From Shigella phage vB_SdyM_006: DNA of 64,000 nucleotides. A program made the position numbers and the translations under genes. The notes under the pieces were generated by a model. It did not search any database, was not told the origin of the DNA, and saw nothing but the letters and a program-made list of their open reading frames with translations. This document shows positions 11,166 to 50,572 of the stretch, piece after piece. Position 1 is the stretch's first letter. Each line of letters starts with the position of its first letter. The stretch is from sequence record MK295204. One strand, given 5' to 3'.

Positions 11166-11450
11166 TTATTTGATTGGGATGATTCTAAATTTGTATTCAC
11201 CGCCACGAGTAAATTTAACTTCTAACTGAGTTGATTCACCAATGTAAAGAACCAAAATTGAATTTTTATTAGAACGTAACCAGTCTTGATATTCTTCAAA
11301 AGACTTGCGTAAAGATGGGATGCTATTTTTATATCGGCCTAAAATAGTCCATGAGAATTCACCACTGCCCATCCATTTAGTGGAACGGTCATATTTTAAA
11401 AGGTTTTCAATATCAATATTTAACCATGTTTTAAAGTTTTCTTTAATCAT
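11166..11450 (-). CDS. hypothetical protein (paralogue of previous gene)
   Basis: 94 aa; shared C-terminal motif with 10821..11156. Confidence 0.4.
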   Translation of the reverse strand: MIKENFKTWLNIDIENLLKYDRSTKWMGSGEFSWTILGRYKNSIPSLRKSFEEYQDWLRSNKNSILVLYIGESTQLEVKFTRGGEYKFRIIPIK

Positions 11451-11650
11451 TTTCTTACCTTCATTCGTTTACGATAAACTACTTTTTCGCGAGTTTTAAA
11501 TTCCTTCTGTTTTTGTTCAACTTCAATATAAACAGAAGCCATTTCTTTAGCTGTTCCACCCATTTTTCTGGCTATATCAACAAAGTGCATACCTTGTTGT
11601 TTAAGAAAGTGGATTTTTATTTTATCATGATTTGTCATTATTTTCTTCAA
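11447..11650 (-). CDS. hypothetical small basic protein
   Basis: 67 aa ORF; 4-nt overlap with downstream gene. Confidence 0.35.
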   Translation of the reverse strand: MKKIMTNHDKIKIHFLKQQGMHFVDIARKMGGTAKEMASVYIEVEQKQKEFKTREKVVYRKRMKVRK

Positions 11651-12237: not shown

Positions 12238-12656
12238 AAAGCTTCTTTTAAAACTTCTATAGCATGCTTAATTTCAAAAGGGATACCTTCTGATGGATGC
12301 TGGCGAATGTTATCGTCAATATGACTAAAATCCATGCCAATTACACGGACTTTATATTTTTGCTCACTATCAAATTCTGATATATTAGAACCCCAAGTGT
12401 TTGATGATGTAACTTCTTTAGTCTCAAAATAAGTACATCCACAATGACAATATTCGTGCCAAAAATCACAGTCTTTATCAAATAAAGGGTGGTCTTCGCG
12501 AAGAGTTAAATATACCGCATAACTCCAATCCGGACGACCATCATTAAATAAAGCTTTATAACTAGGTGGTAATCCTGTAAACCATGAAGTAACTTCAATA
12601 GCTTCGCCTTTCTTTTTATCTGCATGAACAGTGTATACATATTTTTGAATAGACAT
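12234..12656 (-). CDS. hypothetical protein with His/Cys cluster
   Basis: 140 aa; contains WHEYCHCGC (HExxH-like plus Cys cluster); start overlaps stop region of downstream macro gene by 4 nt. Confidence 0.45.
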   Translation of the reverse strand: MSIQKYVYTVHADKKKGEAIEVTSWFTGLPPSYKALFNDGRPDWSYAVYLTLREDHPLFDKDCDFWHEYCHCGCTYFETKEVTSSNTWGSNISEFDSEQKYKVRVIGMDFSHIDDNIRQHPSEGIPFEIKHAIEVLKEAL

Positions 12657-12854
12657 TTATTTTACCTCAATAATAGTGAGTTCAGTATCTTCTGTCAAAT
12701 CACAAAAGTCAAAAGCCAATGCAGCAATACCTGGGTATTCTGATTCGTCAATAATACATTCAGTATTATTATTTTTGATGTCTAAGGCTAATTGATAATT
12801 AGACGTAGTAAATCCAAGTTCAAGTTCTTCGCACCATACGGTATACTTTTTCAT
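12657..12854 (-). CDS. small protein, tandem paralogue A
   Basis: 65 aa; aligns along its length with 12855..13049 (VWCEE, GF-T--YQLA, C-terminal IEVK). Confidence 0.45.
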   Translation of the reverse strand: MKKYTVWCEELELGFTTSNYQLALDIKNNNTECIIDESEYPGIAALAFDFCDLTEDTELTIIEVK

Positions 12855-13049
12855 TTATTTTACCTCAATGAGTTCACAATCGTATAAACAACTACACAGT
12901 TCACAAAAAGAATAAGCCGATGCATATGAATCAGTGTCTATCCAAAACCCAAGATTATCAATAGCACCTTTACGAACTTCATAAGCAAGTTGATAATCAA
13001 CTGTTTCAAATCCAATTTTCTTTTCTTCGCACCATACTATATATTTCAT
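12855..13049 (-). CDS. small protein, tandem paralogue B
   Basis: 64 aa; paralogue of 12657..12854. Confidence 0.45.
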   Translation of the reverse strand: MKYIVWCEEKKIGFETVDYQLAYEVRKGAIDNLGFWIDTDSYASAYSFCELCSCLYDCELIEVK

Positions 13050-13894
13050 GAGTATTCCTTGTCATAATAAGAATCTGGAGTAAAAATATTTAACATATTT
13101 GTAGAATTATCAATAGTAATAATATTTTCCTGTTCAACTTCAGGTGTATAATATTTTAAAAACTCTTCTTTAACGTATTTTACTGGATCACTTTTATAAT
13201 CGTCAGTAGAAATATCAAATAATTCAATTGTATACGTATCAAGCCATTTTTCAGAACATGTTAATCGTCCACATAATAATCCATCATAAACGATAGCATA
13301 TTCAATATGGCCCCATTTATATGAGCTATCAGCGTCGTGTCTGATTAGATAAAACTTAATATCAGAATTCTCACAATCATCACTAATATTGTCACGAACA
13401 TCGTATTCATTGAGCTCGGTCAATTCACTTAAAGCATTAATAAACAGGTTTTTATATTGAGGGCCAGTTACTAACTTATCTTCTGTTAGTTCTTTCTCAA
13501 TAAATTCTTTTAAAGTTAAAACTGGCAATTCATACTTAGGAAATAATGCAGTTTCAGTAATAGTGCCGATATTCAATTCGGCCAATTTCTTAATAACAGA
13601 ATCTTCAGCTTTATCAGAATCAGTCCAAATATGAAGAACTTTAAAATTATGATTATTCCAAATTTTTTGTGGGTCAACATCAATCACATCTTGGGTTTTA
13701 GACAAAAACATTAAAAGGTAATCAGAATCATTCCACCCTACTGGGTTTTCGTATTTTTGAATGACTAGATATTGGAAATCAGTCATTAATGCATTATATC
13801 TTTCTTTAGAAGCTAAAGAAGTAGAATCCATAGATGAAGAAAAAGCTTCAATAACACTAGCTGGGTTTTTAATTAACATTTTGAATAGTCCCAT
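13046..13894 (-). CDS. hypothetical protein
   Basis: 282 aa ORF, no recognisable motif. Confidence 0.5.
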   Translation of the reverse strand: MGLFKMLIKNPASVIEAFSSSMDSTSLASKERYNALMTDFQYLVIQKYENPVGWNDSDYLLMFLSKTQDVIDVDPQKIWNNHNFKVLHIWTDSDKAEDSVIKKLAELNIGTITETALFPKYELPVLTLKEFIEKELTEDKLVTGPQYKNLFINALSELTELNEYDVRDNISDDCENSDIKFYLIRHDADSSYKWGHIEYAIVYDGLLCGRLTCSEKWLDTYTIELFDISTDDYKSDPVKYVKEEFLKYYTPEVEQENIITIDNSTNMLNIFTPDSYYDKEYS

Positions 13895-14115
13895 GTGATT
13901 TTAACACGATCATGATATATTACTCTATCATGGCTTTTTGAAACTGTAAATCCTTTTTCTTTAAGAATTTCAATCAACGCATCTTTAATGGCTTCATTTT
14001 CTGGAAGCTTTGCGTAATGCTCTGTACTATCATGCAAAGCCAGTTGGCAAATATCATTTAACACAATAGCTAAATTGTGTTCAACAACAGTATTTTTAAG
14101 ATCAGATAAATTCAT
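13873..14115 (-). CDS. hypothetical protein
   Basis: 80 aa ORF, first gene downstream of a putative minus-strand early promoter. Confidence 0.4.
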   Translation of the reverse strand: MNLSDLKNTVVEHNLAIVLNDICQLALHDSTEHYAKLPENEAIKDALIEILKEKGFTVSKSHDRVIYHDRVKITWDYSKC

Positions 14116-14149
14116 ATTATTCTCACAGTTGCGAATTGATGATGTGTAT

Positions 14150-14177
14150 ACTATATTATAAAATAGTGTTTGTAAAC
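14150..14177 (-). promoter_or_regulatory. putative divergent early promoter (GTTTAC-N16-TATAGT)
   Basis: GTTTAC on minus strand (plus 14172-14177) with TATAGT 16 nt downstream; weaker match. Confidence 0.3.
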
Positions 14178-14200
14178 ATCTAAAATAATTTAAAATAAAT

Positions 14201-14229
14201 GTTTACTTTTGCTGTCATTATGATATTAT
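14201..14229 (+). promoter_or_regulatory. T4-type early promoter (GTTTAC-N17-TATTAT)
   Basis: -35 GTTTAC 14201-14206, 17-nt spacer, -10 TATTAT 14224-14229; part of a conserved cassette. Confidence 0.6.
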
Positions 14230-14271
14230 ATACATATTGAAACGAAACATGAAAAACAAATGGAGTATATT

Positions 14272-14616
14272 ATGAATAAGACACAAATCAATGCAGTTTT
14301 AAAAACTTTAGGTTATGGTAATTTACGTTATTCTAATGGTAAAACATACCGCAGAGGAAACTCTATGGTTAAAGGTTTTCATTTAATTTCTACTGGTGCA
14401 TGTATGGTGACTTCACCAGAAACACAAAAATTTAGTGATCTTGTTAATGAGTTAAAACAACATTTTGAATTACAATCATATTATGACAATTGCATGGCAA
14501 TATTTGTGACAGGAAAATTAAAAATTGTTGTTTGTTTAACAAATTTTAATACATACGGTGGCTTAAACCCAGATTATAAAACATGGTTTGCATCTGTTAA
14601 TATTGAAAAGTTATAA
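14272..14616 (+). CDS. hypothetical protein, lone plus-strand gene in an accessory island
   Basis: Start placed at the second ATG, preceded by GGAGTATAT as in two other copies of the same promoter-leader cassette; own early promoter upstream and bidirectional terminator downstream. Confidence 0.5.
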   Translation: MNKTQINAVLKTLGYGNLRYSNGKTYRRGNSMVKGFHLISTGACMVTSPETQKFSDLVNELKQHFELQSYYDNCMAIFVTGKLKIVVCLTNFNTYGGLNPDYKTWFASVNIEKL

Positions 14617-14620: not shown

Positions 14621-14645
14621 AAAATGGGACCGTAAGGTCCCATTT
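14621..14645. terminator. bidirectional terminator between plus-strand island gene and gene 54
   Basis: TGGGACC-GTAA-GGTCCCA flanked by A-run and T-run. Confidence 0.7.
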
Positions 14646-15560
14646 TCAAATTAATCTTGTTACAGCTCCTATTCCTCCTCCAGCACCACCTAATCTTGTT
14701 AAATTTCTTAATGAAGAGCTTAAAGAGTTTTCTTCTGAAATTGTATCTATGGCACCAATTGCTTTTGATTCTAACCAATCAAGAGCTGCTTGCCTACCGA
14801 CAGAACCTACCTGCATCACCCTGTATGCGAATGTAACATCAAAAACAGCAATAGTATTATTATCTTCATATGAAAGTTCAGGAGCACCTACCGACATAGG
14901 AACACACCCTGTGAACATGGCAACAGTATGTGGAAGACCGTTTCTATTGTGTAAATTAACCTGGATATCGGCTTCAACATCTATAGGTAAAGCACGTAGT
15001 CCTGTGATTGGGTCTTCAACTGAATTCACCCAATCTTGCATAGCTCGATAATTACTTGCTTCTGAATCCATCCTAAACGAAATTATCAACGGGTCATATT
15101 CTCTAGATAGAACTTTTATATTAGGTGAATTATGATTTTTATCCATCTCATAAGATAGTCTGTTTTCTGGTAATTTGACAGAATAAACCATTAACCCAGA
15201 TGTTGGAAATGCCATATTAAAGAAATCTAATAGATAAGTCCCTACTTCAAATTCTCCTAATAATGATTGAACCACACGATTAGACATGGCTCCTAAAAGA
15301 TATTTAGAAACACCAGATTTTCTCACTAGTTTTTGAGTACCAGCAACAACTAGACTTGATACTGCACTAGTTACATCATTTTGAGATATTCCAAGAAAAT
15401 CTGTATCTATAGGTAAATTGTTAAACAAAAAACCACCAAAATTATCTAAAAGCTCATTAGTTTTTGATGATGGGGCTGTGGCAAAAACAACACTAAACAT
15501 GTTTGTTCTTTGGAAGTCAAGATTGACAGCTTGGCTTTTAAATTCTTCTAATGTATACAT
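14646..15560 (-). CDS. 54: baseplate tail-tube junction protein
   Basis: 304 aa; last gene of the 51-27-28-29-48-54 hub series, matching T4 order and length (320 aa). Confidence 0.75.
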   Translation of the reverse strand: MYTLEEFKSQAVNLDFQRTNMFSVVFATAPSSKTNELLDNFGGFLFNNLPIDTDFLGISQNDVTSAVSSLVVAGTQKLVRKSGVSKYLLGAMSNRVVQSLLGEFEVGTYLLDFFNMAFPTSGLMVYSVKLPENRLSYEMDKNHNSPNIKVLSREYDPLIISFRMDSEASNYRAMQDWVNSVEDPITGLRALPIDVEADIQVNLHNRNGLPHTVAMFTGCVPMSVGAPELSYEDNNTIAVFDVTFAYRVMQVGSVGRQAALDWLESKAIGAIDTISEENSLSSSLRNLTRLGGAGGGIGAVTRLI

Positions 15561-16603
15561 TATAACAATCCTTCTGCAAACAAAGTTCCACGATTTAGTG
15601 TTAAAATCTCTCTAAACGTTATTTCAAGAGTAAACGTACTTGGTAAATTTGGGGCCATGGCTAGACCATTAAAATGTCCATTAGGAGATTTGTCAAATCT
15701 TATACTAGAAATCTGGGCTGGTCCAAATATATCAGTTCGGCCATCATAAGAAGATGTTTTACCAAAATTTCGTATAACCCATATTGTTGGGTTACTTACA
15801 ACAAGAACATTAGTTAAAAAACTTGTAATATTTTCCAATATTGTTCCTGAAGTATCAGCACCGTCTGGGGTATTAGGATTTATTAATGTTGTTTTATACC
15901 ATTCATCAATAGCGGCTTTAATTTCTTTAGCAAATTTAGACACACCTGTTTCACCATAAGAGAAATAACTAAATATTTCGTAAATATACAAAATTTGTAT
16001 AAGGTCTTGTGGAGTCCTTGGTGTTAAATGCCAGGTAAAAACTTTAGTTCTATTATCCGCTCCAGCATACATAGATCTAGCTGTAGTATAAATTTGTTCG
16101 CCTTTATCAGCCATAATTCCTTGTGTAATCGAATCTAATGCACCAAAAACAGCCGTTGACGCAACATTACTCAAAGCACCTGTTACGCTACCACCACCTT
16201 TAGTTAATAAAGAATCTCCAACATCATTAAATCTATGAGAAATGTTATCTACGTCAGATTGACTTCTTGGCATTAATATATTAGCAACAGATTCTTGACT
16301 AAAGGTGGTTGTCCCACCTTTTTTAGAAAAATCAATATTAATTGCGTCAACGGCATTTTGTTTTTTTCTAAAGTCTCTTAATGAGCCTGTATCGCGTGCA
16401 TTATAATTATATGCAGTAAATAACAGCCCGTTTTTATATAAGTCATTAAGTCTAAAATCTAAAGCATTATCTGTACCAGAGGCTCGTTCTGCTGGAAACT
16501 GAGCCACTAATGTTTTGGTTTGAGTATTTGTTGGATTAGAAGACCCAGCAGATATTTTTGTTCCTATTTTCTCTACTTCTTCATCCAGAACTTTTATTTT
16601 CAT
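15560..16603 (-). CDS. 48: baseplate tail-tube cap protein
   Basis: 347 aa; position between gp29 and gp54 as in T4 (364 aa). Confidence 0.75.
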   Translation of the reverse strand: MKIKVLDEEVEKIGTKISAGSSNPTNTQTKTLVAQFPAERASGTDNALDFRLNDLYKNGLLFTAYNYNARDTGSLRDFRKKQNAVDAINIDFSKKGGTTTFSQESVANILMPRSQSDVDNISHRFNDVGDSLLTKGGGSVTGALSNVASTAVFGALDSITQGIMADKGEQIYTTARSMYAGADNRTKVFTWHLTPRTPQDLIQILYIYEIFSYFSYGETGVSKFAKEIKAAIDEWYKTTLINPNTPDGADTSGTILENITSFLTNVLVVSNPTIWVIRNFGKTSSYDGRTDIFGPAQISSIRFDKSPNGHFNGLAMAPNLPSTFTLEITFREILTLNRGTLFAEGLL

Positions 16604-18324
16604 TAATTAACCTCTAAAGCTTTATACATGCCAGGAGCAGCATATCCTGTTACAGGATTTTGTTGAATAACAGTCTTATTATTAGCTACATTGTTTTGGA
16701 CATTAGCTGTATTTGTGGTCGTTTGAGATGATGTTTCTGTTGTTTCTATATTATTGATATTTTCTGCACTTGTGTAAGCTTGAGATTCTTTAGGATCTTC
16801 AGGTTTAATAGATGGGATCTGCTCTAATAACAAATCTGATCTATCTAATGCATCTATTCCTAATTTATAATAATCCGAATCGACTTCAACATCTTGGTTA
16901 TCAACAATAGAACTTGCAAGTTCTCTTAATTCGCCAGCTATTTTAGTTAAAGCCTCTGGGTTATTTCTATGAGCTTCAGATAAGGCCATTAATTGATTTA
17001 ATCTAGCTTCAGTTTTTACTTGTTCTTCTATATCGCCCATTTCTGGTGCAGATTCATCTTGCTTTTTAGCTAAAGCAATAGCCCTATCAGCATCTTCTCT
17101 ACTTATAACATTATTTTTTACATAAGTGTTTGCAGCTTCTTCTATAGACCCACCTGTAAATCTTGCTCTAGCTTTTATCATTGATAAATAGCCTTCATCA
17201 TCACTTTTGGCGGTATTTCTAATGTCGTTACCACGAACTTTAGCCATTAACTTAAGTTCATCTTCGTTAGGCATATAACCTGTATTTTTATTATATGCTT
17301 CTATAGTTGCAACTTCTAATTCGTCAGCCCAGTCGTCCTGCCCTATAGCTCGTAATAATGAAGATAACATTTTTCCTAATGCGTACTGTAAGCCTTGTAA
17401 AAGATTTTCTAAAACGTTTACCATACCTTTTACAATGGCTAATGCTAAATTACCAAAATCGCCTTCTTTCCAGAATTTTTTGACATCTTCTAGTGTAGCA
17501 AATATAGAACGCAATATCGGGGCTAGTGGTCCAAGTTTTTCTTCAAAATCGTCAAAGGCTTCATTAAATAATTTACCCCAATATTTAAAATGAATCATTA
17601 TAAGGTCCATAGCTAATACTATAGCCAACATTATTGCTGCCCATTTGGCAGCAAACAACGCCGCTGTTACAGTGTATTTAAACAACATATCAGCTATTCT
17701 GTTTGTCATCCCATAAGCAGATTTGAACCCAGTTTTAACATTTTTATTTAAAGAATTTAAAACTTTAGATAAAGAGTCTTTTTCTTTATTGTCATCTTTA
17801 GGTTCTTTCTTTTTCTTCTCTTCTTCTGGGACCGGTGCTCTATCGACGTCATCTCTTCTAATAACAAGGTCTTTAATAGCAGATTCTAGTTTATTATCTT
17901 CAACCGGAACAGGGAGTTTAGAAAAAGCTTCTTCGGTCTCAGAAACTTCTGGTTCTACAATTTCCTGTTTTTCTGGTTTAAATTTTTCTTTTAACATATT
18001 ACTTAATTTAGATATGTTCGAAGAAAAAGAATTTGATAATTTAGAATTACTTGTTGCTAAGTCTTTTAAGTTATTATTTGTTTCTTGACTAGAATCTATT
18101 AATAACTCAACACCAGCTTGAACATCTTCTACAGAAGAAACAACTTTAGAAGTCCCAGATTCTACGGTTTCTGCAACTAGCTCAATACCATTTGATAAGT
18201 CATCTAAAGAATCAGAAACATTAAGCATAGAGTTAGCAACATTTTCTTGGCCTTTAGATTCTTTAGATATTTTATTTTTTTCTTCTATTACTTTATTTCT
18301 TCTAAACGAATCAGGTGTTTTCAT
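16603..18324 (-). CDS. 29: baseplate hub / tail length determinator
   Basis: 573 aa vs 590 in T4; position after gp28; low-complexity Ser/Asn-rich segments and a central hydrophobic stretch. Confidence 0.75.
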   Translation of the reverse strand: MKTPDSFRRNKVIEEKNKISKESKGQENVANSMLNVSDSLDDLSNGIELVAETVESGTSKVVSSVEDVQAGVELLIDSSQETNNNLKDLATSNSKLSNSFSSNISKLSNMLKEKFKPEKQEIVEPEVSETEEAFSKLPVPVEDNKLESAIKDLVIRRDDVDRAPVPEEEKKKKEPKDDNKEKDSLSKVLNSLNKNVKTGFKSAYGMTNRIADMLFKYTVTAALFAAKWAAIMLAIVLAMDLIMIHFKYWGKLFNEAFDDFEEKLGPLAPILRSIFATLEDVKKFWKEGDFGNLALAIVKGMVNVLENLLQGLQYALGKMLSSLLRAIGQDDWADELEVATIEAYNKNTGYMPNEDELKLMAKVRGNDIRNTAKSDDEGYLSMIKARARFTGGSIEEAANTYVKNNVISREDADRAIALAKKQDESAPEMGDIEEQVKTEARLNQLMALSEAHRNNPEALTKIAGELRELASSIVDNQDVEVDSDYYKLGIDALDRSDLLLEQIPSIKPEDPKESQAYTSAENINNIETTETSSQTTTNTANVQNNVANNKTVIQQNPVTGYAAPGMYKALEVN

Positions 18325-18829
18325 TTTGGAATAATCCTAATATGTCGTCGCCATAAACAACTTTGTCTTCAAGGTTTATAGCAATACTTTTTCCAAGTTC
18401 ATCAGCCCATTTATACACAAAAGCTGGCATACTACCAAAATCAACTTTTTCTAAACATAATGTTTCTAAAAGTTCTTTAGCTGAAGTGAATCTTTCTCCT
18501 GGTAATATGTCTCTAAATTTATATTCTTTTCCTTGATAAGTAAATTTAGGTGTTGGTAATAGATAAACATCATTTATTGAGTAAGTTTTATCTTTATATA
18601 CGAATGTGTCTGTACATTTACCATTAAATTCGGCTAAATGAAGCAAGACTAAATGAGCTTCTTTAAATGACAAATTTTTATCTACAGAATCAAGAACTAT
18701 TTTTAAAGTATCTTCTGGAGATTTAGCTTCTTTGAATTTGTCATAATAATTAAGTCCGAGTTTAGGAATTGTTAATTCTTTTCCATTTATATTAATCTTC
18801 TTCAGTGGAAGAATTATCTTTAATTTCAT
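18311..18829 (-). CDS. 28: baseplate hub distal subunit
   Basis: 172 aa vs 177 in T4; position between gp27 and gp29. Confidence 0.65.
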   Translation of the reverse strand: MKLKIILPLKKININGKELTIPKLGLNYYDKFKEAKSPEDTLKIVLDSVDKNLSFKEAHLVLLHLAEFNGKCTDTFVYKDKTYSINDVYLLPTPKFTYQGKEYKFRDILPGERFTSAKELLETLCLEKVDFGSMPAFVYKWADELGKSIAINLEDKVVYGDDILGLFQNENT

Positions 18830-19937
18830 TTTTTACCTTAATATGATCTACTGGTTTAAGAATTTTACTATTACTGAACATGTAAATATGTGTAAAACTC
18901 TGATTATTAGACATTTCATGTATAACAGAATCTACATAAAAAGTACTTAAGAACTGATTCTTAGGGTCATAGAATTCTAATTTATTTCCAGGCGTTATAT
19001 CAAAATCCCCATAAGTTGTACATTTTGCATAGGAATCATATTGAGCCATTGTATTTAATTTAGTCGCTTCTTCATACCCATTTCTAAATAACTGATCTGA
19101 ATACCCGCCATTTCTCGAAACTAAAATAGAATTTTCGCCATTTCCATTCACTATCCTAGTACAAGTTTTATCAATCATACTAAAAGAATATATAGTCGAG
19201 TTTTCGTATGGGTTTCTATTATGAGAATTTGTTTTTGTTATCCATTCAAAATCATATGCAAGTGGATATTCAAGTTGATCTGCAAATTGTCCAACCATTA
19301 ACGGTTCTCCGACTACCATTTCCTTAACTTTTGAATTAATGATTTGTTGGAAATCTGTGACGTGGATCCCATTAAAATCATCCCAAACCAAAGCAAACAT
19401 ATCAGATGCAACAGAAATACCAGTATCTCTAACATAGTCCATATATTCCTTAATTCCAAGAACCCATGGAACTAAAGGAACGTGAATATTCGTGCCAGTG
19501 ATCGTAGGTTTCAATAAAGGGGTGTCGGTATATAAAACATTTATCATTTCTTCTATAGTCTCTGTGGCGTTCTTGAAGAACACTCGACTAAATTTAAGAT
19601 TTTTATTTTTATACGGTGGAATCAATTGCATTGTAATAATGTTATCGCCTTTTTGATCAACTGATACAGAAGAATATTTTACGGCATAAATTCTATTTTT
19701 AGTTATTGATGTATTTGCATTACCTACAGAAATTTGGATTATTTGGTCTCCATCTAATTTAGTATGCATATTTTTATGATCGTAAATTTGTAACATCCCT
19801 TCGTTGGTCCCGTATAAATCATCTCTAATTGTCAACGAAGTAAAAGTTCCTGCTAATTCTATAAATCGGTTTTCTAACCAAGCATCATAACTTTGGTATA
19901 ATTTTATCGATATATTAGGATAACCCACCTTTTGCAT
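18792..19937 (-). CDS. 27: baseplate hub protein
   Basis: 381 aa vs 391 in T4; position after gp51. Confidence 0.8.
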   Translation of the reverse strand: MQKVGYPNISIKLYQSYDAWLENRFIELAGTFTSLTIRDDLYGTNEGMLQIYDHKNMHTKLDGDQIIQISVGNANTSITKNRIYAVKYSSVSVDQKGDNIITMQLIPPYKNKNLKFSRVFFKNATETIEEMINVLYTDTPLLKPTITGTNIHVPLVPWVLGIKEYMDYVRDTGISVASDMFALVWDDFNGIHVTDFQQIINSKVKEMVVGEPLMVGQFADQLEYPLAYDFEWITKTNSHNRNPYENSTIYSFSMIDKTCTRIVNGNGENSILVSRNGGYSDQLFRNGYEEATKLNTMAQYDSYAKCTTYGDFDITPGNKLEFYDPKNQFLSTFYVDSVIHEMSNNQSFTHIYMFSNSKILKPVDHIKVKNEIKDNSSTEED

Positions 19938-20688
19938 GTTTTTTGTCCTTTAAATCTTTTTCTATTAATGCTAATGTGATTGTCCTGTTCATTGGGGTCA
20001 TTTTCTCTATATCGTTTAGAGAATAGCCTTGTTTAACCATGATATGATTAATTTTATAAAATGCTATAATTTCCTCTTCAGACAAAATTATTTTAAACAG
20101 GTCTAAAATGTTTCTATATACCATTTCGTGAGTATCACAACAACTAAATTTAACAGGGATATAAATTGGATATATCTCTTTTATTATTTGTTCAAAATCA
20201 TCTAGAGAAATAACAGACATAACAAGATTTTTATTCTCTTGGTCTAAATCTTCCCATATATAAGAACCATTATTGTCTTCAATTTTATATATACAGCTGT
20301 CAAATAATTTTTTTATATCAGTTGTCATTATATCTGTAAAATCAAAATGAATTTTTATTCCTGAAGTTTCTAGAACAGGTCTTTTAAGTCTTTTCAATTC
20401 TAAGTTTAAAAAGGTCTTCTTTTCTTTACCACATTTAGGGCATTTAAAACGTATAGGAAGAACAGATTTACCAATAGATGAAGTAAACCAAATTATAAAT
20501 GCATAAGCTCTATATATTTTTGGCATATAAGGAAATGACTCTTCTAATAATTCATCTAGTATTTGTTCTGCTTCTTCTTGATTTTTTTCTATTTCACTCC
20601 GTACAAATAATAATTGTAAATAATCATCATTAGTAAACTGACGAATTCTGTATGTTTTTTCTGGTGTGACTATTCTTATTATGTTCAT
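19915..20688 (-). CDS. 51: baseplate hub assembly protein
   Basis: 257 aa vs 249 in T4; divergently arranged from gp26 with a shared late-promoter region; contains CPKCG and CCDTHE motifs. Confidence 0.65.
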   Translation of the reverse strand: MNIIRIVTPEKTYRIRQFTNDDYLQLLFVRSEIEKNQEEAEQILDELLEESFPYMPKIYRAYAFIIWFTSSIGKSVLPIRFKCPKCGKEKKTFLNLELKRLKRPVLETSGIKIHFDFTDIMTTDIKKLFDSCIYKIEDNNGSYIWEDLDQENKNLVMSVISLDDFEQIIKEIYPIYIPVKFSCCDTHEMVYRNILDLFKIILSEEEIIAFYKINHIMVKQGYSLNDIEKMTPMNRTITLALIEKDLKDKKHAKGGLS

Positions 20689-20704
20689 AGTGTCTCCTCT
20701 TATT

Positions 20705-20712
20705 TATTTATA
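20705..20712 (-). promoter_or_regulatory. late promoter TATAAATA for gene 51 (divergent, overlapping)
   Basis: Exact octamer on minus strand 17 nt upstream of ATG 20688; overlaps the plus-strand octamer by 4 bp. Confidence 0.5.
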
Positions 20713-20716
20713 AATA
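20709..20716 (+). promoter_or_regulatory. late promoter TATAAATA for gene 26
   Basis: Exact octamer 18 nt upstream of ATG 20734. Confidence 0.6.
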
Positions 20717-20733
20717 GATAAAAAGGAGACACT

Positions 20734-21318
20734 ATGTTTGAAATAACATGTAACGACATAACATACAACGCTAGATATTTCACTCTAGACGAATACGAGG
20801 ACGTTCTTAATAAAATAACTGATAATAATATTAAAGACGCCATTAGTGGGCTCTTAATTGATTGTATAGACTCCTACGATACAAACTTGCCTAAACACTA
20901 TGCAGAATGTATTTTTCTTAAATTATGGGCTCACAGTTTAGGTGGAGTAACTAAAGAACTAAATGATATTTTTGTTAATTTTAATTATATAGAAACACCT
21001 AAAGAAAAAGGATTTATTTACAAATTAGATGGATTGAGTCTCAAAATGAGATATCCAAAATTATTTGAAGACTCTGATAAATTAGAAATGGTCATAAATT
21101 GTATTGACTCAGTATTATTAGAAGACCAAACAGAAATTAAAGCTTCAGAGCTTTCTTCAGATGATTTAAACGTTTTATATTCATACTTGACGAAAGACGT
21201 AATTTTTTCGTTAAGAGACGAATTACTTAGACCTAAACCGTATATCGCTTTTCCTGTTGATGACGAAATTAAAACAATAGAAGGGTTTAAAAATTTATTA
21301 GAGGTGATAGATGAGTAA
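20734..21318 (+). CDS. 26: baseplate hub subunit
   Basis: 194 aa vs 208 in T4; immediately upstream of gp25; TATAAATA late promoter 18 nt upstream. Confidence 0.7.
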   Translation: MFEITCNDITYNARYFTLDEYEDVLNKITDNNIKDAISGLLIDCIDSYDTNLPKHYAECIFLKLWAHSLGGVTKELNDIFVNFNYIETPKEKGFIYKLDGLSLKMRYPKLFEDSDKLEMVINCIDSVLLEDQTEIKASELSSDDLNVLYSYLTKDVIFSLRDELLRPKPYIAFPVDDEIKTIEGFKNLLEVIDE

Positions 21319-21697
21319 AATGAATGTTTTATATTCTGACTTAGACCCTAAAATGGAAAAAGGCTGGGATAAAGACCTGCATAAAGTCGTAGGAGATAGG
21401 GCTGTCAAAAATTCTATTCTAGGAATAATTAGTACTAGGAAAGGGTCTAGACCCTTTGACCCAGAATTTGGGTGTAATATAACAGACCAATTATTCGAAA
21501 ATATGAGTCCATTAATAGAAGACACTATAGAGCGATCTATAGTTTCGGCTATTAAAAATTATGAGCCAAGAGTACAAAGATTAAAAGTTTCTGTTACTGC
21601 ATTGTATGATTCAAATTCTATAGTTGTAGATATTATTTTTTCTATTGTAGATAATCCAGACACATTAGAACAGATAAAAGTTCAATTATCAAAATAG
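21311..21697 (+). CDS. 25: baseplate wedge protein (lysozyme-like fold)
   Basis: 128 aa; blocks LYSD-DP-M, TRKGSRPFDPEFGC and NYEPR--L-V match T4 gp25. Confidence 0.9.
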   Translation: MSKMNVLYSDLDPKMEKGWDKDLHKVVGDRAVKNSILGIISTRKGSRPFDPEFGCNITDQLFENMSPLIEDTIERSIVSAIKNYEPRVQRLKVSVTALYDSNSIVVDIIFSIVDNPDTLEQIKVQLSK

Positions 21698-21936
21698 TTT
21701 ACTATAGTTATTAATTTATTACTTAATAGTTATATATAATATATAAAGAACTTAATAAAATAATAAAAATTCTGGAGCTGCGCTCCAGATTTCTTTAGAA
21801 ATAGTAACATATAGTTATTAATTTATTACTTAATAGTTATATAGAATATACTATACTTTTAATAAATTAATTTACTAGAGTTACTATTAATAGGCTATTA
21901 TAATAAAATGGTTATAATGAATCATTTGGAGGAACT
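21698..21936. repeat. composite AT-rich intergenic repeat element, copy A (gp25/uvsY)
   Basis: Contains two copies of ATAGTTATTAATTTATTACTTAATAGTTATATA plus a stem-loop; near-identical modules at 58498..58703 in swapped order. Confidence 0.8.
21772..21788 (+). terminator. stem-loop inside composite repeat, downstream of gene 25
   Basis: CTGGAGC-TGC-GCTCCAG. Confidence 0.4.
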
Positions 21937-22347
21937 ATGAATTTAGAAGAATTACAAACAATGTTATCAGAAGATTTAAGAATTGATCCATTAAAACTTC
22001 AATATGAAGCTGCAAATAATCCAACATTATATGGAAAATGGTTAAAAATTTATTCTGATATAAAGAAAGGAATTATTTCTTATGAAGCTAATAAGAAAAA
22101 ACTTTTAAAACAAAGATTAGACCATTATACTGGACGTGGTGATGAAGTGTGTATGGACTTATATGAAAAATCAGAACTTAAAACTGTTATTGCAGCTGAC
22201 CCAGAAATTTTGAAAACACAAACATCTGTGGAATATAGAACATTATTATTGGATTTTGCATCAAAAGCTTTAGATGCTATTAAAGCCCGTGGATTTAGTA
22301 TTAAGCACATTCTAGAATGTAGACAATTTGAGGCAGGAACAAAATGA
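21937..22347 (+). CDS. uvsY: recombination mediator protein UvsY
   Basis: 136 aa; LQYEAANN, YTGRGDE, YEKSE-KTV, LLDF-S-ALDAIK-RGF-IKHI match T4 UvsY. Confidence 0.9.
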   Translation: MNLEELQTMLSEDLRIDPLKLQYEAANNPTLYGKWLKIYSDIKKGIISYEANKKKLLKQRLDHYTGRGDEVCMDLYEKSELKTVIAADPEILKTQTSVEYRTLLLDFASKALDAIKARGFSIKHILECRQFEAGTK

Positions 22348-22715
22348 CAAGCATTGATGTATTGAATCAACAGATTGATTTAGCTTCTTCAATTGAAGGA
22401 ATTACTGACAAAACTCCTGTAATAAAATCAATGAAACACTATTTAAGAGATATAAATAATATTAAGCCAATGGCTGAAGGTATACTTAAAAGTAATAAAT
22501 TACCTGATTATACATTATCTCAAATCATTGAAGAACTAAAAGGATGGGCTATGGACCATATTTGTGTAGTTTGTAAAAAGCCTATTGATGAGAGTTTAGT
22601 TATCTATAACGATAATAATGAACCTGTTCATCCGGGGCCTTGTTATAATTTTGCTAAAGAACAACCTGTAACAGAATCAGGTCATTCTTTAAATGAAGTA
22701 GAATTATTAATGTAA
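22344..22715 (+). CDS. hypothetical protein downstream of uvsY (UvsY.-2 position)
   Basis: 123 aa; overlaps uvsY stop by 4 nt. Confidence 0.5.
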   Translation: MTSIDVLNQQIDLASSIEGITDKTPVIKSMKHYLRDINNIKPMAEGILKSNKLPDYTLSQIIEELKGWAMDHICVVCKKPIDESLVIYNDNNEPVHPGPCYNFAKEQPVTESGHSLNEVELLM

Positions 22716-22720
22716 AAAAT

Positions 22721-22746
22721 AAAAGACGAGGGTTACTCGTCTTTTT
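22721..22746. terminator. bidirectional terminator between uvsY.-2 and uvsW.1
   Basis: AAAAGACGAG-GGTTA-CTCGTCTTTTT. Confidence 0.65.
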
Positions 22747-22954
22747 CTGTTTCTAAATCTTCTAATTCTAATCTCTTGCCTTCTAAGGCATCTCTTATAG
22801 AGATATCATCAGTATCTTTAATTTCTAATTCTTTTATACGTTTAGAATAATATTTTTCTAATTCGTCTAAACCAGCCAATGTTTGACATTCTCTTATTTT
22901 GTTCATAAAAGTTTCGACACTAGCTTCGATTAAAATATCTTTAAATTTTAACAT
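22733..22954 (-). CDS. small acidic protein downstream of uvsW (UvsW.1 position)
   Basis: 73 aa; overlaps uvsW 3' end by 7 nt. Confidence 0.5.
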   Translation of the reverse strand: MLKFKDILIEASVETFMNKIRECQTLAGLDELEKYYSKRIKELEIKDTDDISIRDALEGKRLELEDLETEKDE

Positions 22955-24453
22955 AATTTTACCTCTCTCATAGAATAATCAAATTGTTCACTTGCATACC
23001 TTTCTATACGTTCTAAAGCGTGTTTTAATGCATAATTTAAATGTACATATTTCTTTTTAGAATTTTTAGATTTAGGTTTTACACCCATGTCATCTACAAT
23101 GTCCCAAAGAACACCTTCAGCTTTAGAACCATGTAATCTAAGAACACGTCCAATAGATTGTAATACGGTTACTTTTGATTTAATTGGGTGTGCAAATATA
23201 ACATGGTGTAAATTTTTTATAGATACACCAGCACTGAAAACACCATAAGAAGCGACTACAACCATCCCTGAGCGTTTTTCTGCTAAGGCCTTTATAATAT
23301 CTCTATCTTTGTCTTTAACTTCTCCTGCGATAAAGAAGACGTTTTCTTCGCCATATATAGCCTTACATGCCTCGTATAGATCTTTACCATGGGCTATTCT
23401 ATCAAACATAACAAACACATTTTCATTTTTAGATGCTAATTTACATGCAAGTTTAGCTATCCATTCATTACGCTGTTTAGCTTTAATAATGATTTTAATT
23501 TCATCTTGATACGAAAATCCTTTAACTTTTTCTGTAAACGCATCCGGGTATCTTAAAAACAAAGTATTAATTTTAAGTTTAGACACTTGTCCTGCTTCCA
23601 TTAGTTCAGCCGTGGACACTGGTTTGTATATATCTCCAAATAATCCGATATATTGCATTACATTAGCTTTGCCATCTTTAACGGTTCCTGTTAGCCCGAA
23701 TTTAAATTTACAGTTGTTTAATCCGTTAATAATAGTACTAATACTTTTACCAGTCGCTAAATGACACTCATCATTCATTAACATTCCAAATTGACTAAAC
23801 CATTCTTTTGGTTGCTTAATAGCTGTCTGCCAGGTTGATACGTAAACCAAAGCATCAGAATCTTTAGCTGTACCGCCTTTTATTCCTAATAACATTTCTT
23901 TAGAAAATAGTCTATAGTCGACTAAGTCATCAATCATTTGTTTAACAAGAATAGTTGTTGGAACTAAAATTAAAACTTTACCTTGAAAGTTTTCTATATA
24001 ATAACGTGCTAAGAGCGCCTGGATCAACGATTTACCAGCTGATGTAGGTAAATTCAATAAAGCTCTATTTTGTGTTAAGCCTTTAACTACAGAATCTTTT
24101 TGATACCAATGAGGCGTTATCTTAGATGACCCAGAATATATTTCTTTAGAATCTATCCAATCAGAAACTTCTTTTTCAGTAATATCGCCATTATCATATA
24201 TTTTAGGATCCGTTTCTACAGTATAGTCCATATTAGAAGCAAACTTTTTAACATAGTTCACAAGCCCGTATGGTAATAAGCCGTCATACCCTAAAATTCT
24301 AATCTTGCCGTCCCATTGACCATATTTAAATTTTGGATTAAATTGGTACCCAGGAGTTTCGAAAGAGAAATAATCTCTTAATTCAAAGAACACAGAATCT
24401 TCACACTCGATTTTTACACTACTATAATCGTAAAACTTTAATTTAATATCCAT
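22948..24453 (-). CDS. uvsW: UvsW DNA helicase (SF2)
   Basis: Long identity runs with T4 UvsW (PTSAGKSLIQALLARYY, WFSQFGM-MNDECHLATGKSIS, KKKYVHLNY-LKH); start set at ATG 24453 (MDIKLKF), which lies downstream of a minus-strand TATAAATA. Confidence 0.92.
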   Translation of the reverse strand: MDIKLKFYDYSSVKIECEDSVFFELRDYFSFETPGYQFNPKFKYGQWDGKIRILGYDGLLPYGLVNYVKKFASNMDYTVETDPKIYDNGDITEKEVSDWIDSKEIYSGSSKITPHWYQKDSVVKGLTQNRALLNLPTSAGKSLIQALLARYYIENFQGKVLILVPTTILVKQMIDDLVDYRLFSKEMLLGIKGGTAKDSDALVYVSTWQTAIKQPKEWFSQFGMLMNDECHLATGKSISTIINGLNNCKFKFGLTGTVKDGKANVMQYIGLFGDIYKPVSTAELMEAGQVSKLKINTLFLRYPDAFTEKVKGFSYQDEIKIIIKAKQRNEWIAKLACKLASKNENVFVMFDRIAHGKDLYEACKAIYGEENVFFIAGEVKDKDRDIIKALAEKRSGMVVVASYGVFSAGVSIKNLHHVIFAHPIKSKVTVLQSIGRVLRLHGSKAEGVLWDIVDDMGVKPKSKNSKKKYVHLNYALKHALERIERYASEQFDYSMREVKLC

Positions 24454-24467
24454 TACTTTCACCTTGT

Positions 24468-24475
24468 TATAAATA
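24468..24475 (+). promoter_or_regulatory. late promoter TATAAATA for inh-like/hoc-like genes
   Basis: Exact octamer 33 nt upstream of ATG 24509. Confidence 0.6.
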
Positions 24476-24481
24476 CATATA

Positions 24482-24489
24482 TATTTATA
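24482..24489 (-). promoter_or_regulatory. late promoter TATAAATA for uvsW
   Basis: Exact octamer on minus strand 28 nt upstream of ATG 24453. Confidence 0.6.
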
Positions 24490-24508
24490 CAAAGCCTAAG
24501 AGGACATT

Positions 24509-25222
24509 ATGAAAATTGATCAACAATATATTGATTCTTTAACTGAAGAATATACTTCAGGCGAAATTGATAGAAAAACAGCTAAACAAAAATTAACAGA
24601 TTATGCTAAAGAATCTTTTAATTTTGATTTAAACAAACAAAAAAGTTTTGAGAATATGATTGTTCAGCTTAAAGAAATGATCGATAATTATGTAGAACCC
24701 GAATTAGAAGAACAAGATGGAATTTCTATTAAAGATCTAATTACCGCAGCTGACCAATTAGATGGTAAAAGTGTTTTTAATGATGCCAATGAAGAAGCAT
24801 TAGAATTACTTTCAGATGTTTCTTATGATGGAATTAAACCAGATTTGGTAATTAAAACACCCCAACCACAAATTACTAAAGAAGAAATTATTGATAAACC
24901 AGAAAAATCTTTAATAAGTAAGAATTTAGAAGTTAAAGAAGAAATTAAATCCCAAGAATATATGCCGGAATCGGCAAAATATGTTCTTCCTGATGGGTTC
25001 TCTCCAACTATTACATTAATTGGTAAAACTCCTGGATATTATACTCTTCCATGGTGGATTTATCAATGGATTTTAGAAAATGAAGATTGGAAAGATAGGC
25101 CAGAAGAATGCCCCGAGTATTCAGCTATTAATATTTTAAAATCATTGATTTACTTTATTAATAGAGATGGACAGGTCAAAATTAGAGAAACAAGAAATTC
25201 AAGATTTTATACCCTAAAATAA
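24509..25222 (+). CDS. hypothetical late protein (position of T4 inh)
   Basis: 237 aa; TATAAATA late promoter 33 nt upstream; assignment to Inh is positional only. Confidence 0.35.
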   Translation: MKIDQQYIDSLTEEYTSGEIDRKTAKQKLTDYAKESFNFDLNKQKSFENMIVQLKEMIDNYVEPELEEQDGISIKDLITAADQLDGKSVFNDANEEALELLSDVSYDGIKPDLVIKTPQPQITKEEIIDKPEKSLISKNLEVKEEIKSQEYMPESAKYVLPDGFSPTITLIGKTPGYYTLPWWIYQWILENEDWKDRPEECPEYSAINILKSLIYFINRDGQVKIRETRNSRFYTLK

Positions 25223-25231
25223 GGATTATAT

Positions 25232-26056
25232 ATGAGTATAGTACTAAAATTAACACCAGAGAACCCTAAAATTACTATAGGAGAATCTCAAGAATTCACC
25301 ATGACTACAGAGAATCAAACAGATGAGACTCTAAAATATGAATGGTATATTAATGAAGACATATATGAAGCCACAAATAAAAATATGACATATACACCTG
25401 ATAAATCAGGTGAATTTATTATAAAATGTAAAGTATCTTCTTTAGGATTAGAAGGGGAAACCGTTTTAGGCGAAGAATCCACCACTTTAACTGTAAATCT
25501 TAAAACTATAACCGATTTGACGACAAATATTACAGGCCCAAAAGAAGCAGAATATGGCGAAGAATTTGAACTTGTTGTAAATGCTGAAACTACAGCAGAA
25601 TCTCCTAAATATACATATAAATGGTCTAGTGGTGAAACTACAAAAAAAATAAAGGTAATTGAATCTGAAGAAGGTGAAAAAACTTTTACATGTACAGTAA
25701 CATGTAAATCAACTAATTATGAACCCGCTACTTCAACATCAGAACATAAAGTTTCTATATCAAAACCCGTAGTTCCTGAACCAGATCCGTCTTGTGAATC
25801 ATGTAGATATATTCATCCTTTAGACCATAGAGAATCAGCATATTTATGGGTAGGATACTGGGTACTAGAAGAAATAGAAAAAGCCGTGGAAGAAGGAATT
25901 GATTGGAAGAAGCCAGATGATACTGATCTAAAATATAAATGTGATTTGAAGACCCTCGCATTTATGTTAGAAAAATACCCTAATGTAGATGTACAAGAAT
26001 CAAGAAATGGATATATCTTATCTAAAGACGATATTGAAAATGGGGTTATTTACTAA
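25232..26056 (+). CDS. Ig-like domain protein, possible Hoc-like capsid decoration
   Basis: 274 aa; two roughly 90 aa repeats with Ig-like beta-strand patterns plus a C-terminal domain; position next to the inh-like gene. Confidence 0.4.
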   Translation: MSIVLKLTPENPKITIGESQEFTMTTENQTDETLKYEWYINEDIYEATNKNMTYTPDKSGEFIIKCKVSSLGLEGETVLGEESTTLTVNLKTITDLTTNITGPKEAEYGEEFELVVNAETTAESPKYTYKWSSGETTKKIKVIESEEGEKTFTCTVTCKSTNYEPATSTSEHKVSISKPVVPEPDPSCESCRYIHPLDHRESAYLWVGYWVLEEIEKAVEEGIDWKKPDDTDLKYKCDLKTLAFMLEKYPNVDVQESRNGYILSKDDIENGVIY

Positions 26057-26060
26057 ACAA

Positions 26061-26090
26061 AAAAGGGACCAATTGGTCCCTTTTTATTTT
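26061..26090. terminator. bidirectional terminator after hoc-like gene
   Basis: A-run, GGGACC-AATT-GGTCCC, T-run. Confidence 0.7.
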
Positions 26091-26359
26091 TATTTTCTAA
26101 AGATCTTACCAAATTTGCTAATCACAAAATTCTCACCAACTTTAATATCGATACGAATAGAAACATGTCCTATTGTATCAGTATTCAACATATCACTTAA
26201 AGACATTGAAGAATGTCTTTCGAAATCTTCAACAATATTAAACCCATCATTATCACAATGAGTGTCAATAAATTCTTTAAGCTTTACTGAGCTTCCTTCA
26301 GATAAAATAGGGTCATTATAGAAACGACAAGATGATTCAAATAATTTTAAAGTAACCAT
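26090..26359 (-). CDS. hypothetical protein downstream of alt
   Basis: Start set at ATG preceded by AAGGAG (MVTLKLFE...); about 89 aa. Confidence 0.4.
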   Translation of the reverse strand: MVTLKLFESSCRFYNDPILSEGSSVKLKEFIDTHCDNDGFNIVEDFERHSSMSLSDMLNTDTIGHVSIRIDIKVGENFVISKFGKIFRK

Positions 26360-33374: not shown

Positions 33375-33402
33375 TTTAGACCTCCGTTATTAATTGTGAT
33401 CT

Positions 33403-33432: not shown

Positions 33433-33450
33433 ACTTATTTTCAATAAAAC

Positions 33451-33474: not shown

Positions 33475-33479
33475 TAAAT

Positions 33480-50544: not shown

Positions 50545-50572
50545 AATCTACCTCATTTGTTTTGATGTGTCC

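Follow-up and report, generated by a model that had tools for sequence, protein, structure and literature searches.

The 11.4-kb baseplate-hub/uvsW/hoc block at positions 14646..26056 of the DNA analysed here (a 64-kb stretch of the genome of Shigella phage vB_SdyM_006, hereafter the window) is flipped relative to phage T4. We consider it likely that this block is a self-contained module that flipped once, and that the palindromic hairpins at its two ends are ordinary terminators whose stems match because they come from a limited repertoire. The orientation was established by comparing gene order with T4 and phiR1-RT. The window reads 24(+), dprA/rnlB(-), [54 48 29 28 27 51(-), 26 25 uvsY(+), uvsW(-), inh hoc(+)], alt and 30(-), whereas T4 reads 24(+), rnlB 24.2 24.3 hoc inh(-), uvsW(+), uvsY 25 26(-), 51-54(+), alt and 30(-). 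These strand lists show that the segment from hoc to 54 is inverted and that its flanks keep the T4 polarity. An inversion from uvsW to 54 between T4-like flanks had been claimed in the first-pass annotation and is borne out, the gene identities assigned there were right, and the two palindromes reported with it, TGGGACC-GTAA-GGTCCCA at 14625..14642 and GGGACC-AATT-GGTCCC at 26065..26080, were found exactly at those positions. The window is approximately 99% identical to phiP4-3 (genus Bragavirus, Proteus phages) and 84-90% identical to Pm5461. The features of the block and its junctions are listed in Table 1.

Table 1 Features of the inverted block and of its two junctions in the window
Feature	Position	Strand	Remarks
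T4 gene 24.3 homolog (DUF2774)	11447..11650	-	24.3 abuts hoc in T4-order phages
sigma70-like promoter, GTTTAC-N17-GATATTAT	~14201-14230		precedes o118
o118 (118-aa ORF, phrog_13016)	14260..14616	+	converges on gene 54
left block-end hairpin, AAAATGGGACC-GTAA-GGTCCCATTTT	14621..14646	.	between o118 (+) and gene 54 (-); predicted bidirectional intrinsic terminator
late operon 51-27-28-29-48-54	14646..20688	-	genes and internal order as in T4 51-54
gp54	14646-15560	-	late operon
gp48	15560-16603	-	late operon
gp29	16603-18324	-	late operon
gp28	18311-18829	-	late operon
gp27	18792-19937	-	late operon
gp51	19915-20688	-	late operon
overlapping divergent TATAAATA late-promoter motifs	20705..20716	.	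between gp51 (-) and gp26 (+)
gp26	20734-21318	+	within 20734..22715 (+) group
gp25	21311-21697	+	within 20734..22715 (+) group
uvsY	21937-22347	+	within 20734..22715 (+) group
ORF with uvsY.-2-like C-terminus	22344-22715	+	within 20734..22715 (+) group
internal palindromic hairpin, AAAAGACGAG-GGTTA-CTCGTCTTTT	22721..22745	.	convergent junction of the uvsY.-2-like ORF and uvsW.1
uvsW.1	22733-22954	-	
uvsW helicase	22948-24453	-	
divergent TATAAATA late-promoter motifs	24468..24489	.	between uvsW (-) and inh (+)
inh	24509-25222	+	
hoc (274 aa)	25232-26056	+	
right block-end hairpin, AAAAAGGGACC-AATT-GGTCCCTTTTT	26060..26085	.	between hoc (+) and o89 (-); predicted bidirectional intrinsic terminator
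o89 (89-aa ORF, phrog_25116)	26090..26359	-	alt side; converges on hoc

The inversion itself is already known. Oliveira et al. (2017; Sci Rep 7:46157, PMC5384007) described an inversion of more than 10 kb of the baseplate-hub/outer-capsid cluster in Morganella phage vB_MmoM_MP1 and Proteus phage vB_PmiM_Pm5461 and found the T4 orientation in every other T-even genus; breakpoints, a mechanism and the hairpins at the flanks are not described in that paper. The window shows the same block in the same orientation and in the same clade: more than 10 kb, including the hub and tail-tube cap genes and hoc, is inverted between collinear flanks, in a Bragavirus genome whose clade is monophyletic with MP1. 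Beyond that report, we add seven phages, place the left breakpoint beside the 24.3 homolog and trace the hairpins to ancestral terminators.

All nine phages of the Morganellaceae-infecting clade that were compared carry the inversion, and recurrent flipping, with relatives in either orientation sharing the same hairpins, was not seen. By contrast, 47 of 50 T4-like loci from IMG/VR, a few of which end before one junction, show the order of T4 or one that is consistent with it. A neighbour-joining tree of six block proteins with a midpoint root recovered the inverted clade as monophyletic, and the inversion looks, from these sequence comparisons, like one old, derived event, probably with a single origin. 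The first-pass annotation had left room for the orientation being ancestral and common to T4, but the ancestral orientation is that of T4. The midpoint root does put the inverted clade and the PS2-like loci on one side, as might be expected if the Bragavirus orientation came first and that of T4 were derived. However, every other sampled lineage has the T4 order, including the distant RB49-like clade (the outgroup) and the sister PS2-like loci L043 and L044, in agreement with the survey of T-even genera cited above, which makes this polarity very improbable. Relatives in the other orientation were also sought by pattern. The exact 26-nt pattern of the hoc end plus hairpin had no match in metagenome contigs, and the gene 54-type hairpin pattern occurred in IMG/VR only in phiP4-3, Pm5461 and L064, none of them an informative relative in the other orientation; the L064 contig has no T4-type marker-protein matches.

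The arrangement of promoters and hairpins suggests how such a block could be turned around. The segment would be a transcriptionally self-contained late-gene module, in which two divergent late-promoter pairs drive outward operons from 51 to 54 and from inh to hoc, each closing with its own GC-rich palindromic intrinsic terminator. Pm5461 has annotated promoters at the sites equivalent to both pairs. The module would have flipped once, in the ancestor from which the T4-like phages of Morganellaceae, namely Bragavirus, Gualtarvirus and PSTCR6, descend, with breaks in two short intergenic spacers, hoc|24.3 and 54|alt-side. Because it brings its own promoters and terminators, the flip would have been tolerated and then fixed, and it was presumably neutral. 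The hairpins, as the cognate terminators of gene 54 and hoc, would now insulate convergent transcription at o118/54 and hoc/o89. Their common GGGACC stem would derive from the small terminator-stem repertoire of T4-like phages, possibly with occasional copying between terminators, and would be no scar of the inversion.

The junction neighbours help to place the breaks. In the window, approximately 3 kb from the 24.3 homolog to gene 54 (11650-14616) consist of lineage-specific inserted ORFs; among the phages examined, o118 is present only in Bragavirus members and has no match in MP1, PSTCR6 or PSTRCR_121. PSTCR6 has its 24.3 homolog immediately after gene 54, so that the left breakpoint falls in the spacer of approximately 120 nt between genes. 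On the other side, an o89 homolog adjoins hoc in PSTCR6. When o89 was compared with T4 alt.-3 and phiR1-RT g199 to pin the right breakpoint, no similarity was detected at E < 0.01, and searches of Pfam and PHROG with o118, o89 and a 282-aa ORF returned families of unknown function or no match.

Both block-end hairpins are perfect 26-nt palindromes with 11-bp arms and a GGGACC stem. Their predicted RNA folding energies on the two strands were -17.3 and -17.8 kcal/mol (left) and -16.6 and -17.0 kcal/mol (right). Each would form a stable GC-rich stem-loop just after the stop codons with a U-run on both strands, the run on the plus-strand side of the left hairpin being short (ATTTTC). The right hairpin, and only the right one, corresponds to an annotated rho-independent terminator in Pm5461, predicted by MFOLD, and the left stem is kept in five of five Bragavirus phages with a variable loop. 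The window has five convergent gene junctions, and a palindrome of this kind stands at four of them. We detected no difference from bidirectional intrinsic terminators of convergent genes, which likewise are perfect GC-rich palindromes with A-run and T-run sides between two stop codons. Judged by sequence, the block-end hairpins are most simply interpreted as bidirectional intrinsic terminators.

Such hairpins are not peculiar to the inverted phages. Whatever the orientation of the block, almost every T4-like locus has a GC hairpin 0-6 nt past the stop codons of gene 54 and of hoc, which marks the two as cognate terminators belonging to the block. The stem after gene 54 is common to the T4 group (ATGGGGACC), Bragavirus (ATGGGACC) and MP1 (GGACC), and this conservation with T4 indicates that the hairpin travels with its gene. 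The match between the two ends has to be weighed against this background. GGGACC-N4-GGTCCC occurs at only two sites in the window, the two block ends, and is absent from another 98 kb taken from the almost identical genome of phiP4-3 (approximately 162 kb examined in all). Dinucleotide shuffling gave an expectation of 0.01 for such a pair, but this is an inappropriate null, and the terminator stems actually present in T4-like loci were used instead. Of 273 terminator-like hairpins in these loci, 34 have the core GGGACC, which ranks second in frequency among 6-bp cores, and two hairpins of that set share a core in 4.5% of pairs. A hand tally of the phiP4-3 hairpin lists gave approximately 2-5% core-sharing within a genome, and other stems recur in the phiP4-3-type genome (AAGGAGAC and AAGGACC, four times each). 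We estimate that the GGGACC match of both block ends within approximately 162 kb is a 2-5% coincidence. By a rough count, stem sharing between gene 54 and hoc recurs in three of approximately 17 lineages against the 4.5% expected (p ~0.04), and this excess hints at some coupling between both terminators. Both figures count against the explanation preferred here.

The first-pass annotation had proposed that recombination between the matched palindromes inverted the block. In this explanation, the terminators at hoc|24.3 and 54|alt.-3 of an ancestor would have been palindromes of similar sequence, and the block would have been flipped by strand exchange between them, whether through recombination over short homology, template switching during replication, or cleavage of a cruciform and mis-joining. 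A palindrome is its own inverted repeat, and two copies can hence support an inversion. Breakpoints and hairpins do coincide, with a permissible interval of approximately 26-33 nt at the convergent junction that is mostly hairpin, but the coincidence is uninformative because there is hardly any non-coding DNA there outside the hairpins. A plausible pre-inversion substrate exists in T4-order phages with near-identical end hairpins, namely, L014 with a 33-nt near-identical repeat and L023-25 with GGAGCC at both ends, and the 54|alt junction has been independently rearranged in RB49-like phages. By contrast, the inverted MP1 and PSTRCR_121 have unmatched stems (GGACC versus GGGAACC) and in the inverted PSTCR6 gene 54 is not followed by a GC hairpin. 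With hairpins after 54 and hoc near-universal, inversion occurring without a match and a match occurring without inversion, the causal claim found no support. The event would moreover be ancient and single and the stems turn over between genera, so the present match in Bragavirus cannot be a relic of the inversion.

The hairpins themselves argue in the same direction. The identical core available for homology is only 6-7 bp, and each hairpin is internally symmetric, the seventh base pair differing between them (T:A in the left one and A:T in the right one), so that neither has chimeric arms. The additional flank similarity, AAACAAAAA, is direct rather than inverted and equals the generic T-run flank of terminators in the phage. 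When mosaic boundaries among Bragavirus phages were tested for hairpin sites, the clear boundary in SJ_PmiM fell at approximately 19,400, inside gp27. Taken with the evidence on PeSL cassettes and loop flips given below, these observations leave inversion through the hairpins unlikely. In a separate comparison, the hoc hairpin of MP1 showed a 31-nt identity with gp24 terminators of Klebsiella and Edwardsiella phages. We rejected it as a sign of a mobile hairpin because a palindrome holds only approximately 17 nt of independent information and the database spans 2.3 Gb, so that such a match is near the chance expectation.

Inverted-repeat-like sequences bounding an 11.4-kb segment might also suggest a switch that is still flipping, similar to phase variation, with the palindromes as crossover sites. 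Invertible segments of the Gin/Hin/Cin type have an adjacent invertase or recombinase gene and occur in both orientations among isolates or within populations. Here, the annotation of phiP4-3 lists no invertase and no serine/tyrosine recombinase within the block or its flanks, and the nine relatives share one orientation. The block holds essential baseplate genes with their own promoters, and flipping would switch nothing. An active invertible segment is effectively refuted.

Terminator stem-loops have a precedent as rearrangement sites in T4-type phages. Promoter-early stem-loop (PeSL) cassettes mediate modular shuffling (Arbiol et al. 2010, PMC2839356; Comeau et al. 2014, PMC4122927); recombination of such cassettes is documented in RB49 and phi1, where one crossover was mapped within a loop (PMC2839356). 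Like the block-end hairpins, PeSLs include GC-rich intergenic terminator stem-loops, for which a role as recombination points has been proposed and in part demonstrated. The general idea in the first-pass annotation that palindromes act as rearrangement sites thus has a parallel; its reading of the matched palindromes as cause or mark of this inversion does not stand. PeSLs differ in being composites of a stem-loop and a sigma70 promoter that act as direct repeats and give ORFan indels or mini-circles, not inversions of core genes. A stem-loop followed by a sigma70-like early promoter, AT-rich upstream, is found after gene 54 in MP1 and PSTRCR_121, a PeSL-like architecture that is in favor of hairpin involvement, whereas the block-end hairpins of the window have no adjacent promoter.

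Between close relatives, the loops of T4-like terminators often flip to their exact reverse complement with stems unchanged. In the gene 54 terminator of the clade, the loop is TTAC in the window and PM2 and GTAA in Pm5461. Such flips, seen in many lineages, indicate that strand-switch events occur at terminators, and are also in favor of a hairpin-mediated route. Related phenomena are the 'minute inversions' of chloroplasts and quasipalindrome mutagenesis in T4. The flips seen here, which are exact reverse complements of the loop, also resemble the hairpin-loop inversions that arise by template switching during replication (Monttinen and Loytynoja 2022, PMC8794818), but they span 3-4 nt and not 11 kb. 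Terminators might serve as strand-switch substrates at two scales, flipping their own loops and, rarely, exchanging with other terminators of the same stem. This might explain the copied end hairpins of Bragavirus, L014 and L023-25, the 11.4-kb inversion and the alt inversion at the same junction in RB49-like phages, but we regard it as unlikely.

If the hairpins had mediated the inversion, the PeSL idea would extend from the shuffling of accessory ORFans to the re-orientation of core structural modules, and a sequence-level rule for break sites in large phage genomes would follow. As the evidence stands, the analysis mainly confirms a published rearrangement, and any self-contained transcription module inverted in a T4-like genome would be expected to show matching hairpins at its breakpoints. 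Results that can be reused are the distribution of the inversion across the clade, the position of its left breakpoint beside the 24.3 homolog and the documentation of T4-like terminator loops as hotspots of exact reverse-complement flips. Clear PeSL-like cassettes are also present elsewhere in the window, for example, at 33456 and 50623 on the minus strand.

In the window the genes run 24(+), dprA...rnlB...(-), o118(+), [54 48 29 28 27 51](-), [26 25 uvsY uvsY.-2-like](+), [uvsW.1 uvsW](-), [inh hoc](+), o89, alt...30(-), where o118 and o89 are ORFs converging on gene 54 and hoc, respectively; the T4 record reads 24(+), rnlB 24.2 24.3 hoc inh(-), segE uvsW(+), uvsY.-2 uvsY.-1 uvsY 25 26(-), 51 27 28 29 48 54(+), alt.-3...alt, 30(-). 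The hoc-to-54 block is therefore inverted between flanks that keep T4 polarity, as the first-pass annotation had proposed. This inversion is already known, having been published by Oliveira et al. (PMC5384007), who do not discuss breakpoints, hairpins, or mechanism. By megablast, both junction regions were 99.2-99.7% identical to Proteus phage phiP4-3 (Bragavirus, Straboviridae), to whose record the window is antiparallel, and the other Bragavirus phages SJ_PmiM, Pm5461, and PM2 matched at 84-99.8%. The inverted order was present in 9/9 distinct group phages, namely, Bragavirus (window/phiP4-3, counted as one, SJ_PmiM, Pm5461, and PM2), Gualtarvirus (MP1, Rgz1, PSTRCR_121, and PSTRCR_127), and PSTCR6. 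A survey of IMG/VR, using a gp27 alignment scan and then tblastn with 21 marker proteins, yielded 50 loci; only three, the genomes of phiP4-3, MP1, and Pm5461 already counted above, were inverted, and the other 47 have the T4 order or one compatible with it. Loci compared in this analysis carry L numbers below. Yersinia phage phiR1-RT and the distant RB49-like loci also show the T4 order for the block. In a neighbour-joining tree built from six proteins of the block, the inverted phages form a single clade, and their order is most simply read as a single derived inversion in the ancestor of the Morganellaceae-infecting T4-like phages. The idea that relatives occur in either orientation with the same hairpins was not borne out: the group phages share one orientation, and a search for Bragavirus-like contigs with the opposite one found none.

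Both end hairpins lie exactly where they had been placed. Predicted RNA folding on either strand gave -16.6 to -17.8 kcal/mol, with z-scores of -4.4 to -5.8. A GC-rich perfect hairpin follows the stop codon of gene 54 by 0-6 nt, and another that of hoc by the same distance, in nearly every T4-like locus in either block orientation, and such a palindrome lies at 4/5 of the window's convergent junctions. The T4 group (ATGGGGACC-GAAA/TTTC-GGTCCCCAT), Bragavirus (ATGGGACC-N4-GGTCCCAT), and MP1 (AAGGACC-TTCG-GGTCCTT) recognisably share one gene 54 terminator stem, which therefore moved with gene 54. Given the divergent late-promoter motifs inside the block, both block ends are 3' ends of outward-reading late operons, and the putative terminators there are part of the module. 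As judged from sequence, the end hairpins are best described as putative bidirectional intrinsic terminators, the ordinary cognate ones of gene 54 and hoc.

Features of the window that bear on the block inversion
Feature	Position	Strand or location	Description
Left hairpin	14621-14646	both strands	perfect 26-nt palindrome, 11-bp arms, AAAATGGGACC-GTAA-GGTCCCATTTT
Right hairpin	26060-26085	both strands	perfect 26-nt palindrome, 11-bp arms, AAAAAGGGACC-AATT-GGTCCCTTTTT
Divergent TATAAATA late-promoter motifs	20705-20716 and 24468-24489	inside block	promoters annotated at same sites in Pm5461
24.3 homolog	11447-11650		DUF2774 ORF
PeSL-like cassettes	33456 (33400-33475) and 50623 (50560-50646)	minus	stem-UUCG-stem, then TTTTTTGGTTTTAT, AT-rich tract, TGTTTAC-N17-GATATTAT
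Further PeSL-like sites	28527 and 33112		

The first-pass annotation had suggested that the inversion arose by recombination between matching palindromes. GGGACC-N4-GGTCCC occurs within the window only at the two block ends and is absent from the further 98 kb of phiP4-3. Among 273 terminator-like hairpins of T4-like loci, GGGACC (34) and GGAGCC (35) are the two commonest cores, and two hairpins have a common 6-bp core in 4.5% of cases, within loci and between loci alike. Other stems are reused in the phiP4-3-type genome, AAGGAGAC four times (three in the window and one more in phiP4-3) and AAGGACC four times, and AAAAATGGGACC-ATTC-GGTCCCATTTTT was found on an IMG/VR contig without T4-type marker-protein matches. 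Extra flank similarity (AAACAAAAA / TTTTTGTTT) was rejected as a mark of special pairing, being in direct orientation and a generic T-run terminator flank in this genome. Because GGGACC-type cores are common, stems are reused, and the flank similarity is generic, we rate the stem match as a coincidence, with a chance of roughly 2-5%, noticed after the fact. GGGACC-type hairpins likewise stand at two convergent junctions of T4 (24/rnlB and 54/alt.-3); the T4 gene 24 terminator (L002:3611, between gene 24 and rnlB) is GGGACC-TTTC-GGTCCC, and a closely related phage carries its loop in the flipped form GAAA.

Across the genomes compared, stem matching does not track the inversion. Matching stems are lacking in the inverted Gualtarvirus (GGACC after gene 54 versus GGGAACC after hoc) and PSTCR6 (no GC hairpin after gene 54, GGGAGC after hoc) but present in T4-order loci: L023-25 have GGAGCC at both block ends, and L014 has a 33-nt near-identical direct repeat, ATAAAAA[C/G]AAAGGGACCCGAAGGTCCCTTTTT, hairpin included, at both (L014:3692-3724 and L014:15424-15456). 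Its relative L016 has this repeat at the gene 54 end only, which suggests that one terminator may have been copied onto the other. Matched gene 54/hoc stems occur in 3/~17 lineages versus 4.5% expected (~p = 0.04 on a rough lineage count), a weak hint that these two terminators are sometimes homogenised and nothing stronger. With ordinary cognate terminators whose match does not follow the inversion, the causal role given to the palindromes is unsupported.

Gene 54 of PSTCR6 is followed directly by a homolog of T4 24.3 and phiR1-RT g181, the gene abutting hoc in T4-order phages; the left breakpoint therefore lay in the ~100-120-nt spacer from the hoc terminator to 24.3. The T4 spacer holds the hoc terminator and a TATAAT-type -10 motif, read as a putative promoter, and its MP1 equivalent now holds the gene 54 terminator and a sigma70-like promoter. 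In Bragavirus, gene 54 has since been separated from the 24.3 homolog by the insertion of ~3 kb of lineage-specific small ORFs (11650-14616; none in PSTCR6), among them o118 with its own putative early-type promoter, so that what now flanks the left hairpin on its outer side is no longer the original junction. The inserted region, at the old breakpoint, is hyperplastic. Its part from ~12.85 to 13.75 kb, including most of a 282-aa ORF (13046-13894) with no PHROG match, lacks a counterpart in SJ_PmiM, Pm5461, and PM2. On the right, 33 nt separate the hoc and o89 stops, 26 of them hairpin, and the T4 spacer from 54 to alt.-3 is 26 nt; coincidence of breakpoint and hairpin is thus forced by geometry and mute on mechanism. 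Both hairpins are symmetric internally, each with a seventh base pair of its own (T:A left, A:T right), and therefore neither has chimeric arms, which is weak evidence against exchange between them because the inversion is old.

The terminator loops vary on a smaller scale. In 396 hairpin comparisons from 59 near-identical locus pairs, 26 showed an exact reverse-complement loop on unchanged stems (e.g., GAAA/TTTC, GCAA/TTGC, CGAA/TTCG, TCAC/GTGA, and TTAC/GTAA), at ~15 or more site-and-clade combinations by our own count, covering window 14632-14635 and orthologous terminators in L002-L059. The mismatch rate was 13.1% in loops versus 6.1% in the background and 2.2% in inner stems. The gene 54 terminator loop (gene orientation) is TTAC in the window and PM2, GTAA in Pm5461, GTTA in SJ_PmiM, and ACAA in phiP4-3, that is, four loops on an invariant stem among five Bragavirus phages; between the window and phiP4-3 (L001 ~17127), 3/4 loop bases differ in an otherwise ~99% identical region. 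These flips fit a pattern that Monttinen and Loytynoja 2022 (PMC8794818) described, in which template switching at hairpins during replication inverts the loop. A non-exhaustive literature search found no paper reporting them in phage terminators.

Such small-scale strand switching at hairpins favors the proposal that the block inversion used the end hairpins, as does the precedent of PeSL (promoter-early stem-loop) cassettes, a terminator stem-loop plus early promoter, which mediate modular shuffling in T4-type phages (PMC2839356; PMC4122927), one crossover being mapped inside a loop (PMC2839356). PeSL-like cassettes are present elsewhere in the window, and RB49-like phages underwent an independent rearrangement at the 54/alt junction: in L034, L040, L042, L045, L047, L049, and L055 (~15.8-18 kb in each), alt lies immediately downstream of gene 54 and on its strand, inverted versus T4, with no hairpin between them. 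L040 and L055 have two tandem alt copies. Against the proposal stand the distribution of matching stems and a sharp boundary between SJ_PmiM and the window, which are ~85% identical left of ~19,400 and 99-100% identical from there to ~29 kb. The boundary is a mosaic one left by recent homologous recombination; it falls in gp27, an essential baseplate gene, and at no hairpin. The favorable points do not demonstrate that the hairpins took part in the 11.4-kb inversion, and we consider it unlikely that the inversion used the hairpins, which we take as cognate terminators.

Other differences were seen among these phages. Hoc (25232-26056) has 274 aa in the window, phiP4-3, and SJ_PmiM, 359 aa in Pm5461 and PM2, and ~361 aa in MP1; its central part is unalignable among the length variants, probably through gain or loss of an Ig-like domain. 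In PM2 (L058:3167-6824), the uvsW annotation is split, and uvsW is interrupted by two ORFs, one of them a homing endonuclease gene. Genes 23 and 24 are separated in PSTCR6 and phiR1-RT by a ~1.5-kb ORF, which in phiR1-RT is annotated as a homing endonuclease. A DprA-like gene (8808-9371) between gene 24 and rnlB is found in the Bragavirus-containing clade and several other T4-like lineages, not in T4.
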